Positions 4,620 through 6,745 of a stretch of DNA of 64,000 nt are shown piece after piece. Under the pieces are notes generated by a model, which saw only the letters and a list, made by a program, of their open reading frames with translations, was not told the DNA's origin and searched no databases. This stretch comes from a virus. How positions within the stretch are numbered: position 1 is the stretch's first letter; every line of letters starts with the position of its first letter. Both the position numbers and the translations under genes were made by a program. The stretch covers positions 1-64,000 of IMG/VR virus record IMGVR_UViG_3300023181_000003; one strand, given 5' to 3'.

Positions 4620-5093
4620 ATGCCAAGTGTCTTTGAATGGTGGCTAGGTAGGCCAGAAGAAATAGTTATACCAAAACCAGAGAGAAAGAAATATACTGAT
4701 TTAACAGGACAGAGATTCACTAAACTACTTGTCCTAAACAGAATAGAATCAGATAAACACGTATATAAATATTTATGTCAATGTGATTGTAGTAATACTA
4801 AAGTTGTACTAGCACAGAATCTTAAAACTGGTAAAACTAAATCATGCGGATGTTTAAGAGAGTCTAAAGAGTGTTATTCTAAAATTAAACTAACACAAGC
4901 CCTTGTGCTTGAAAGATTTAATACTGCTCATGGAAACTTATATGATTATTCACAAGTTGTTTACAAAGGTATAGCAAATAAAGTGAGTATTGTTTGTTAC
5001 AAACATGGTGTTTTTATGCAAAGACCTGATAATCATTGGAATGGTGGTGGTTGTCCACACTGTTATAATGAAAATATTAAGAATAGATCATAA
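4620..5093 (+). CDS. homing-endonuclease-related DNA-binding protein (no nuclease motif seen)
   Basis: 157 aa. N-terminal module LTGQRFTKL...CQCDC...SCGC matches the repeats of the HNH-AP2 protein (6832). C-terminal module HGNLYDYS...CYKHG...GCPHC matches the repeats of the 49960 protein. GGAG 8 nt before the ATG. Confidence 0.7.
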   Translation: MPSVFEWWLGRPEEIVIPKPERKKYTDLTGQRFTKLLVLNRIESDKHVYKYLCQCDCSNTKVVLAQNLKTGKTKSCGCLRESKECYSKIKLTQALVLERFNTAHGNLYDYSQVVYKGIANKVSIVCYKHGVFMQRPDNHWNGGGCPHCYNENIKNRS

Positions 5094-5120
5094 ATATTTA
5101 TATGTATCCTCTAGTTTAGT

Positions 5121-5149
5121 ATATATTTAGATAATTCTTGTGATACAAT
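5121..5149 (+). promoter_or_regulatory. extended -10 promoter-like element (TGaTACAAT)
   Basis: TG at 5141-5142, TACAAT at 5144-5149; no good -35. Confidence 0.4.
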
Positions 5150-5340
5150 ACTCTTATGTAAGTAAATAGTTACTTCGGAAATAAAGAATGCACTCAAGAT
5201 CGTTACATATATTGTTCCCTTGAGGCTCACATTGTTTTATTACAGTGTGTCGAATTAATGCAGGTAAGGTGTTTATGGATACACATTAGCCTTCCAAGCT
5301 TAAATAGATCGGCTCGGTACCGACTACCTGCTCCAAATAA

Positions 5341-5410
5341 GGATGAGTATACCGTTAAGGAGGCGGAACCGGCTGTAACTCGGTTGGATCGTTACCAAGA
5401 TCATCCACCA
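5341..5410 (+). ncRNA. tRNA-like element, anticodon-loop CU-GUA-AC (Tyr-type), reduced D/T arms, encoded ACCA end
   Basis: Hand fold: acceptor GGATGA(5341-46)/TCATCC(5401-06) then A-CCA; anticodon stem ACCGG/TCGGT with a 7-nt loop (GTA at 5375-77); D stem of only 3 bp; T arm of only 3 bp with a non-canonical loop. Confidence 0.3.
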
Positions 5411-5533
5411 AATAATTAAAGATCACCTACCTTAGTGACCGATAGACCCTCGGCGAGATAAGAAATTCTCAGGTGTCCGCATCAAGCAGCTTAAGCGAAA
5501 TGTAAGCCCTGTAATTGTAAGCAGGATAAATAT

Positions 5534-5611
5534 AGCGGTGTAGTTCAGTCCGGTAGAACAGGGGTCTCATACGCCTCATGTCATGGGTTCAAATCCCATC
5601 ATTCGCAACCA
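5534..5611 (+). tRNA. tRNA-Met-like (anticodon CAT) with non-closing acceptor stem; possibly pseudogene or part of a larger composite
   Basis: Canonical D arm (GTTC/AGTCCGGTA/GAAC), anticodon arm (GGGGT/CTCATAC/GCCTC) and T arm (ATGGG/TTCAAAT/CCCAT), ending ..CATTCGC-A-ACCA. The adjacent 5' strand AGCGGTG does not pair with CATTCGC. Confidence 0.45.
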
Positions 5612-5728
5612 AGCATCTGTGACCCACATGCAGCAATTGAAGCTGGCAATGTCGAACAGAGTTAACACGCACAACAATTACACAGCTTTCCTCCTTTCTA
5701 TGTGATAGTTGCTCTGTGCCCTAATAAT

Positions 5729-5812
5729 ACCGACTTCGCATAGAGGCCGATTGCACCTGTTTTGTAAGCAGGAATATAAACACCGTAAGTTCAAATCTTA
5801 CAGTCGGCACCA
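5729..5812 (+). tRNA. tRNA-like, anticodon TGT (Thr-type), encoded CCA, unusual 12-nt variable loop
   Basis: Hand fold: acceptor ACCGACT/AGTCGGC (A1-C72 mismatch); D arm GCAT/AGAGGCCGA/TTGC; anticodon arm CCTGT/TTTGTAA/GCAGG; T arm GTAAG/TTCAAAT/CTTAC; A-CCA at 5809-5812. Confidence 0.5.
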
Positions 5813-5832
5813 AATAAAGAAAAGAATATATC

Positions 5833-6177
5833 ATGGCAAATCCTAATTTAGTAAAAGGTGCCCCTGCTTTACCTGGGGCTGGTAGACCACCTGGGAGTGG
5901 TAACAAATCTAAAGCTTCTTCATTACGTAAAACTTTAAAGAAACTAAAGTCGTTTGAAGAGAAAGCTATCCAAAACATTGAAGACAGTGTTAATGGAAAA
6001 GAAGTAGATAAAGAGCAACTAGCATCCTCTAAGTGGCTTGTAACAAGTGTTGTAACAGTCCAGAAAGCTTGTTTAGCTGAAGAACAGTTTAAAGAATCCC
6101 TCAATGATGAGGATGAAGAGAAAGAACCTGTGGTTGAAAAACCTAAGTTTTCTCTTAATATTGTAAATAAGATTTAA
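5833..6177 (+). CDS. hypothetical protein; possible small terminase / DNA-binding protein
   Basis: ORF track, 114 aa; N-terminal GAGRPPGSGNK basic motif and acidic C-terminus; lies upstream of terL. The function call is a guess. Confidence 0.6.
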   Translation: MANPNLVKGAPALPGAGRPPGSGNKSKASSLRKTLKKLKSFEEKAIQNIEDSVNGKEVDKEQLASSKWLVTSVVTVQKACLAEEQFKESLNDEDEEKEPVVEKPKFSLNIVNKI

Positions 6178-6262
6178 TATAATGTGGAGAGACTAGCGAT
6201 TATGGCTAGGGAGTTGAGATGCATGGATAGTGTGGCAGGCTCAGCACGAATAAATCAATATT

Positions 6263-6297
6263 AGAGGGGTAGTAAAAACTACACCCTCTTTTATTTT
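6263..6297 (+). terminator. rho-independent terminator
   Basis: AGAGGGGTAGT-AAAA-ACTACACCCTCT (one bulge) followed by TTTTATTTT. Confidence 0.6.
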
Positions 6298-6313
6298 GTA
6301 GAAAAGGATTGTA

Positions 6314-6745
6314 ATGAGTAGTATTAAATATAGAGTGTCTGTTCAAGGCACAGACAGTTTAGGCCACAAGTGGTTAAGTAATGTAGTGGAAGTGGCTAAG
6401 CTAGGTGGTGAGGTCGATATGAATCAATTACGTACATCATTCCCTCATTCAGCTATTATGTTTCTTGAAACAGATCAAGAGATGGTTAGTAGGTCTGGTG
6501 TGACATTCACTGTTCTTGAACAGAGTTATAGCACAGAAGAAGAGTTAGATGCCTTGCCTATTGAAAAATGGCGTAAGCTTATGAAAGCTAATGGTTGTAA
6601 TTCTCGTAATAGACATGATGGAAATACACAGTATTTAGCTAAATTTTCTGTTGTAGAAAAAGTTGTTAAGCCAGTTAAGAATAAAGTAGAAACTGTGTTA
6701 CAATCTGATGTTGTAACAGAAGATGTAGCTGACGCTACAGAGTAA
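6314..6745 (+). CDS. hypothetical protein
   Basis: ORF track, 143 aa; AAAGGA 6 nt before the ATG. Confidence 0.65.
   Translation: MSSIKYRVSVQGTDSLGHKWLSNVVEVAKLGGEVDMNQLRTSFPHSAIMFLETDQEMVSRSGVTFTVLEQSYSTEEELDALPIEKWRKLMKANGCNSRNRHDGNTQYLAKFSVVEKVVKPVKNKVETVLQSDVVTEDVADATE

Follow-up and report, generated by a model that had tools for sequence, protein, structure and literature searches.

A tRNA(CAU) gene with a bulged acceptor stem, probably preceded by a recombination-scarred spacer, in the tRNA cluster of an uncultured phage

Introduction

Does a tRNA-Met-like structure in an uncultured phage genome borrow the 5′ half of its acceptor stem from a strand located 38 nt upstream, or does it possess an acceptor strand of its own? 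The question arises at positions 5495-5611 of the window, the 64,000-nt stretch analysed here, which opens a complete genome of 94,234 bp bearing direct terminal repeats. An earlier note on this DNA had described a canonical body closed only from a distance, across an inserted hairpin homologous to the anticodon arm of a neighbouring tRNA-like gene. It had proposed either a recombinant or decayed tRNA, a tRNA interrupted at position 7/8 by an unusual insertion, or a tRNA mimic with two arms. We examined the structure, its leader and the corresponding loci of related phages.

Results

Genomic context and sources of comparison

The nearest cultured relatives of the genome are Pseudomonas phages, with a portal identity below 50%. 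The tRNA-like structure belongs to an ORF-free tract located upstream of the packaging genes, between a gene coding for an HNH-family protein (4620-5093) and a small conserved gene (5833-6177, orf5833). Within this tract, ARAGORN calls a tRNA-Gly (5260-5335) and a tRNA-Thr (5729-5812), and Rfam detects one tRNA at 5535-5607, scoring 52.3 bits, and another at 5729-5809, scoring 48.4 bits. ARAGORN, suggested in the earlier note as a check, called neither the composite structure nor a tRNA(CAU) at 5534-5611. A second tRNA cluster, on the minus strand and outside the window (genome positions 90241-91961), contains Arg-UCU, Cys-GCA, Met-CAU and Leu-CAA genes (loci L001-L004). The tRNA(CAU) of that cluster (90741-90814, 74.7 bits) is fully canonical.

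Relatives were reached through orf5833, which led to seven short contigs of related phages (L024-L030). Relatives identified through the large terminase (14 viral-contig loci, at most 79% protein identity) were uninformative: none shares DNA with 5100-5900, hence they carry no comparative information. Group I introns scoring above the Rfam gathering threshold occur in or beside the terminase region of related viral contigs (L012, 9249-9502 and 17129-17421; L016, 7727-7972). An exact look-up for more strain variants using the HNH-like protein upstream of the tract returned no record.

The body of the tRNA(CAU) gene is canonical

The gene and its parts were delimited as follows.

5534-5611, plus strand: tRNA(CAU) gene, detected with Rfam RF00005, in a register obtained by alignment to the tRNA-Met of phages CR3, Boevelstad and SSBI34
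5543-5599, plus strand: canonical D, anticodon and T arms (anticodon at 5568-5570), according to the Rfam alignment and a base-by-base check
5600-5607, plus strand: 3′ acceptor strand, 8 nt long where CR3 and Boevelstad have one base fewer, seen as a one-base insertion in the alignment with other phage tRNA-Met
5535-5540, plus strand: proximal 5′ acceptor strand, pairing with 5600-5606 with U5602 bulged, according to the cmscan alignment, a check of the pairs and the parallel in L030

The RF00005 match at 5535-5607 spans model positions 1-71 of 71; its score clears the gathering score of 29 and falls inside the 48-75 bits range of the other tRNAs of the genome. Checked base by base, the stems measure 4 bp in the D arm (5543-5559), 5 bp in the anticodon arm (5561-5577, with CAT at 5568-5570) and 5 bp in the T arm (5583-5599), so that their earlier description as textbook arms stands. 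All bases involved in tertiary contacts are present (U8, A14, G15, G18-G19, A21, U33, G46, C48 and G53-C61), and the T-loop is of the T-T-C-R-A type. Position 1 is A5534, mismatched with A5607 at position 72; the discriminator A5608 and an encoded CCA (5609-5611) follow. Folded alone, the sequence adopts a minimum free energy (MFE) structure that is not a cloverleaf, with a stability no better than that of shuffled sequences (z = −0.31).

The tRNA-Met(CAU) genes of Cronobacter phage CR3, Salmonella phage SSBI34 (Vequintavirinae) and Pseudomonas phage Boevelstad are 79-84% identical to this body. They share with it the G2-C3-G4 start, the end of the 3′ strand, the discriminator A and the encoded CCA, as well as the anticodon and variable loops. 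They differ from it by a U1-A72 pair, a 7-nt 3′ strand and a regular 7-bp acceptor, whereas the gene of the window has A1 opposite A72 and an extra 3′-strand base that results in a bulged U; their leaders are unrelated to that of the window. In the register provided by these three genes, the irregularities thus amount to a mismatched 1-72 position and a single bulge, and the 5′ strand is not missing.

Bacterial tRNA-fMet is characterized by an unpaired 1-72 position, G2-C71, C3-G70, A73 and three consecutive G-C pairs in the anticodon stem (29-41, 30-40 and 31-39). By inspection, the tRNA(CAU) exhibits several initiator-type features (A1/A72 unpaired, G2-C71, C3-G70, G4-C69 and A73). Its anticodon stem contains G29-C41 and G30-C40, but U31-G39 replaces the third G-C pair of initiators, and its D stem carries an elongator-type 11-24 pair. 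A similarity search against E. coli tRNAs for the isotype produced only weak tRNA-Asn matches and was uninformative. Phages often carry two CAU tRNAs of different identities, be it Met, Ile2 or initiator. In the long ORFs of the window, ATA represents 100 of the 781 Ile codons, a share that fits either a Met or an Ile2 role and argues for neither.

Local versus distal closure of the acceptor stem

According to the earlier note, the 3′ acceptor strand cannot pair with the adjacent AGCGGTG. This is accurate in the strict register; a shift of one base, with U5602 bulged, yields six pairs, five of them Watson-Crick and one G-U (in order G-C, C-G, G-C, G-U, unpaired U5602, U-A and G-C). It is this local closure that the Rfam tRNA model adopts, matching 5535-5540 to 5600-5606 and placing one deletion in the 5′ strand. 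Where a regular acceptor would have 7 bp, the local stem thus has six pairs and one bulged U, with A1 opposite A72, which is unusual for a working bacterial-type tRNA. The bulged acceptor is predicted at −6.9 kcal/mol versus −6.2 kcal/mol for the unbulged one.

A similar acceptor is found in L030, an uncultured relative (Logan contig) whose orf5833 homologue is 67% identical. Rfam aligns its tRNA-Met in the same way, with a single deletion, an 8-nt 3′ strand and one unpaired U, and the bulged form is predicted at −8.3 versus −4.9 kcal/mol for the unbulged form. Between the bulge and the T arm lie two pairs, which read U-A and G-C in the window gene and C-G and U-A in L030. This recurrence with compensating changes supports the local bulged acceptor, in a comparison of two rather different tRNA genes rather than of a family alignment. 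The L030 gene also resembles that of the window by its 3′ terminal bases, its CCA, and the small hairpin followed by an A/T-rich tail of 8-9 nt that precedes it. It differs strongly in the D arm, anticodon stem and T arm, scores 40.5 bits and has a paired U1-A72; its leader hairpin is of another sequence, is devoid of any complement to the 3′ acceptor strand, and its likeness to the leader hairpin H1 of the window (see below) is not significant. In the comparison with tRNA clusters of related phages that the earlier note had called for, the tRNA-Met acceptors of L026 and L027 are perfectly paired, that of L030 is bulged, and no tRNA-Met leader among the relatives contains an equivalent distal strand complementary to its own 3′ strand.

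The alternative closure, between 5495-5502 and 5600-5606, does comprise the seven Watson-Crick pairs and one bulged A previously reported, base by base, and the distal strand is indeed followed by TA, as positions 8-9 of a tRNA would be. Against local closure, the seven distal Watson-Crick pairs are nominally better than five plus a G-U, and MFE folds, unconstrained or constrained to the cloverleaf core, use part of the distal strand. With the core enforced, the MFE fold contains five distal pairs and turns 5506-5539 into one long arm (−25.7 kcal/mol). In comparison, the cloverleaf with the local acceptor and both leader hairpins reaches −25.2 kcal/mol, and the cloverleaf with the distal acceptor and hairpin H2 −25.0 kcal/mol. 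Since the local and distal folds are separated by 0.2-0.5 kcal/mol, folding energies do not discriminate between them. When the 134 nt upstream were shuffled 20000 times, 581 shuffles (~3%) contained a complement of 7 bp with one base inserted; the distal complement is within chance expectation.

The leader contains a copy of a tRNA-Thr anticodon arm

The features of the leader, and the probable origin of one of them, are listed below.

5489-5507, plus strand: hairpin H1, 5 bp (5489-5493 with 5503-5507) and a 9-nt loop, from the MFE fold of the spacer 5411-5533
5494-5504, plus strand: segment resembling tRNA positions 1-9 and directly repeating 5534-5542, assessed by match counts in the window and by shuffles
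5508-5525, plus strand: hairpin H2, 5-bp stem and 8-nt loop, a tRNA-Thr anticodon-arm copy with one additional loop base, from the 12-mer, the alignment and the folds
5526-5533, plus strand: A/T-rich spacer tail directly before the tRNA(CAU) gene, similar to tails before tRNA-Met in L027, L030, CR3 and SSBI34
5756-5778, plus strand: origin of the copied segment in the tRNA-Thr(UGU) gene (5729-5812), comprising the anticodon arm and the beginning of the long variable loop, from the ARAGORN and Rfam calls, the alignment and the 12-mer

When the spacer 5411-5533 is folded alone, H1 and H2 (5508-5512 with 5521-5525) form side by side, H2 in both the MFE and centroid folds and H1 in the MFE fold. 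The candidate distal acceptor strand, 5495-5502, forms part of the loop and 3′ arm of the predicted H1.

The homology of the leader hairpin with the anticodon arm of the tRNA-Thr gene withstood scrutiny: H2 resembles 5756-5772, and an exact 12-mer is common to 5515-5526 and 5762-5773 (repeat D3). The local alignment score of 27 between H2 and tRNA-Thr was reached by none of 5000 shuffles. The alignment of about 45 nt claimed earlier with the 5729-5812 element reflects a real relationship and proved weaker than claimed, with 28 identities over 42 columns once extended and 23 over 27 in its core.

The other repeat of the leader consists of the initial four bases of the tRNA 5′ end together with its final four, found at 5494-5504 and again at 5534-5542. 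This pattern, which was picked after being seen, was present in 0.4% of the shuffles (78 of 20000) of the 134-nt upstream sequence and has four matches in the 64-kb window, two of which lie at this locus. The segment 5494-5504 is probably a short duplicate of the first 9-11 bases of the tRNA. A 15-nt tandem similarity (5498-5507 versus 5513-5522), together with a 7-mer common to both junctions, is compatible with template switching at microhomology. We also noted an inverted repeat of 15 nt, 87% complementary, between 5504-5518 in the leader and 5674-5688, the 5′ arm of a pyrimidine-loop hairpin 155 nt downstream, which could be a long-range stem bracketing the tRNA or could be due to chance.

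Several further candidate homologies were dropped. The 10- to 11-mer common to H1 and the leader hairpin of L028-L030 is not significant (133-545 of 3000 shuffles score as well). A scan of viral contigs for that L028-L030 hairpin gave at least 117 stretches; among the matches fetched, the right context was found only in L028-L030 and the others look like chance. A homology between the leader and the sequence downstream of a conserved upstream element (5419-5480, see below) in L027 and L028 was discarded, as the alignment beyond the element is too weak. Exact-pattern scans of viral contigs for the tRNA body, H2 and a degenerate family pattern returned either no match or phage CR3 only. A 16-mer taken from the conserved upstream element, used to scan metagenomes, retrieved 53 stretches, few sharing more than the word and none with the composite arrangement.

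The tRNA cluster is mosaic

The relatives clearly differ from the window phage and from each other by whole cassettes between the same flanks, even among near-identical strains, as judged from their sequences. L025 encodes a protein identical to that of orf5833 and contains the same leader and tRNA(CAU) with two SNPs, one in the D loop; its next genes are a tRNA-Asn and a tRNA-Thr unlike that of the window. L024 also encodes an identical protein, but the region upstream of its orf5833 homologue contains a tRNA-Phe and yet another tRNA-Thr. Endonuclease-like genes with HNH, T5orf172 or DUF723 signatures lie in or beside the tRNA clusters of the window phage, L026, L028 and L030. Other pieces of the cluster look like degenerate tRNAs and escape recognition by Rfam.

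Other elements of the tract

The tRNA-Thr(UGU) gene (5729-5812) has a 12-nt A/T-rich, apparently unpaired variable loop and A1 opposite C72. As the tRNA(CAU) has A1 opposite A72, both tRNAs of the tract have a position-1 A that is unpaired with 72. L030 harbours the same tRNA-Thr gene with G1-C72, and in L027 the long variable loop of tRNA-Thr is a different one.

A long hairpin (5679-5725 in the window; also L024 and L027-L030) immediately precedes tRNA-Thr in every relative; its conserved pyrimidine loop includes a CCUCC-like core. Compensating changes affect 7 of its 11 predicted pairs; its L027 and L028 versions terminate in an ACCA-like tail, and it matches no Rfam family. A conserved stem-loop of ~50 nt is present between tRNA cassettes in the window (5615-5661), L030 (1057-1101) and L026 (1281-1335), with 14 predicted pairs and one compensating change; a tRNA-Asn takes its place in L025.

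Further upstream, a highly conserved non-tRNA element occurs at 5419-5480, in L025 (1-60), L028 (2082-2142) and L027 (2298-2360), the window and L028 copies being 98% identical. Apart from one additional base, the 13 bases at its start look like the 3′ end of 16S rRNA; its internal hairpin covaries between the window and L027, and no Rfam family matches it.

Non-canonical tRNA-like elements that form a family occupy 5193-5210, 5260-5335 and 5341-5410, with members in L024, L028, L029 and L030. These elements have Gly-UCC, Tyr-GUA and Asn-GUU anticodon loops and a T-loop reading A-T-C-G-T-T-A instead of the T-T-C-R-A type; an Rfam search did not recognise them even at E = 10. The Gly element is 83-89% identical to sequences of T4-like Aeromonas phages, annotated as tRNA-Gly in some records and unannotated in others.

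Discussion

With a probability that we place at roughly 0.65, the interval 5534-5611 is a tRNA(CAU) gene of standard length with its own adjacent acceptor strand, behind a recombination-scarred spacer. To judge from its sequence, this gene is otherwise ordinary and probably functional. The 40 nt at 5494-5533 would then be the end of the inter-tRNA spacer rather than an insertion inside a tRNA. In such a spacer, H2 would be a stretch of ~25 nt copied from tRNA-Thr (its anticodon arm and the beginning of its variable loop) through illegitimate recombination or gene conversion, and the probable duplicate of the first 9-11 bases of the tRNA held by H1 would be a scar of the same kind. Embedded homing-endonuclease-like genes probably helped cassette swapping in the cluster. 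The tract would be transcribed as a multi-tRNA precursor. By analogy with general tRNA biology, host RNase P would cut at or next to 5534 and thereby remove the spacer, and 3′ trimming would expose the encoded CCA. The mature product would be 77-78 nt long and would decode AUG, or AUA if host TilS turned C34 into lysidine. ARAGORN would skip the gene because of the bulged base in its acceptor stem. Among the options of the earlier note, a recombinant tRNA comes nearest: the leader copy of a tRNA-Thr arm, the probable duplicate of the tRNA 5′ end and the mosaic cluster agree with it, and the tRNA itself would not be interrupted.

The damage may instead mark a redundant pseudogene in decay, with a local acceptor and an impaired end stem, no longer processed or charged and kept only because the damage is recent. 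We judge this unlikely, although the failure of ARAGORN, the U1-A72 pair and 7-nt 3′ strand of its relatives, and the degenerate tRNA-like pieces elsewhere in the cluster are all in its favour, as is the canonical tRNA(CAU) at 90741-90814, which could make this copy redundant. Against decay, the tertiary-contact bases, anticodon loop and CCA are all intact, and the gene outscores the neighbouring tRNA-Thr, which both programs call. It has also been kept in L025 with a single D-loop SNP although the surrounding cassettes were exchanged, its bulged architecture is found in L030 as well, and pairs of CAU tRNAs with different identities are frequent in phages. Very improbable is a composite RNA of ~117 nt (5495-5611) in which the distal strand closes the acceptor and the intervening 38 nt protrude as an additional arm between acceptor and D arm, leaving the proximal 5′ strand unpaired or inside that arm. 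The seven distal pairs, the TA that follows them and the long arm of the core-enforced fold can be cited for it, and so can the preservation of the arrangement in L025; that contig is nearly identical to the window, so its conservation carries no information. The composite has no energetic advantage over the local fold, and its complement does not exceed chance expectation (~3% of shuffles). The distal strand sits in the predicted H1, and no relative displays an equivalent. It would also place U8 and A9 38 nt from the D stem, presumably breaking the U8-A14 geometry kept elsewhere. To our knowledge, insertions at 7/8 have no precedent among tRNAs of bacteria or phages. The claim of an acceptor closed only from 38 nt upstream is thus at odds with the local stem chosen by the covariance model and recurring in L030, and neither an insertion at 7/8 nor a two-armed mimic is borne out.

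A functional role of the leader itself seems still harder to credit. As a free-standing near-copy, H2 might act as a decoy or competitor for a host factor recognising the tRNA-Thr(UGU) anticodon arm, such as an anticodon nuclease or a modification enzyme, or the two alternative 5′ strands might constitute a switch governing tRNA maturation. H2 is a real copy predicted to fold, the genome encodes at least one RNA ligase, and two reports describe phage tRNAs that counter tRNA-cleaving defences (PMC10264068, PMC11555353). On the other side, H2 is found only in the window strain and the near-identical L025; as L030 has the same type of tRNA-Thr and lacks H2, there is no sign that H2 is conserved. 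Moreover, its loop has 8 bases instead of 7, the analysis identified no defence system that targets tRNA-Thr(UGU), and a scar accounts for the same facts with fewer assumptions. We give equally little credence to a variant in which both 5′ strands are used, yielding either a normal tRNA or a 117-nt tRNA-like RNA that displays a free-standing mimic of the tRNA-Thr(UGU) anticodon arm, as a maturation switch or as a decoy against a host factor attacking or modifying that arm. The link to anticodon nucleases raised by the earlier note is pure speculation.

Intervening sequences are known in archaeal tRNAs with bulge-helix-bulge motifs and in bacterial tRNAs with group I introns, to which the locus would be comparable only if the composite were real. 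No bulge-helix-bulge (two 3-nt bulges and a 4-bp helix) can be drawn at 5502/5503 and 5540/5541: these junctions are direct repeats and not complements, and the best fold of 5506-5539 leaves none. In bacteria, the group I introns of tRNA genes interrupt the anticodon loop. The 38 nt are far too short for such an intron and lie outside that loop, and no Intron_gpI match was obtained at E up to 10 in 4900-6400, while the same style of search detects these introns in loci of relatives.

The tRNA cluster of phage T4, which contains the non-tRNA stable RNAs C and D between its tRNAs, offers a parallel. It is a compact multi-tRNA transcription unit, as the tract described here would be, and has an embedded homing-endonuclease gene that favours the exchange and amplification of tRNA segments (PMC2330249, PMC13096335). 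The T4 endonuclease SegB lies inside the cluster (PMC2330249), and it is reported to drive segmental amplification of tRNA loci (PMC13096335). The two clusters differ in that they have no sequence relationship and that the endonuclease is of the GIY-YIG type in T4, the endonuclease-like genes here being of the HNH type.

If real, a 117-nt composite would represent a new kind of tRNA-like RNA, and nothing found at this locus requires one. The bulged acceptor, present also in a second uncultured phage, suggests that this irregularity is tolerated. The piece of tRNA-Thr copied into the spacer of another tRNA fits a picture of rapid modular exchange in phage tRNA clusters rich in homing endonucleases.
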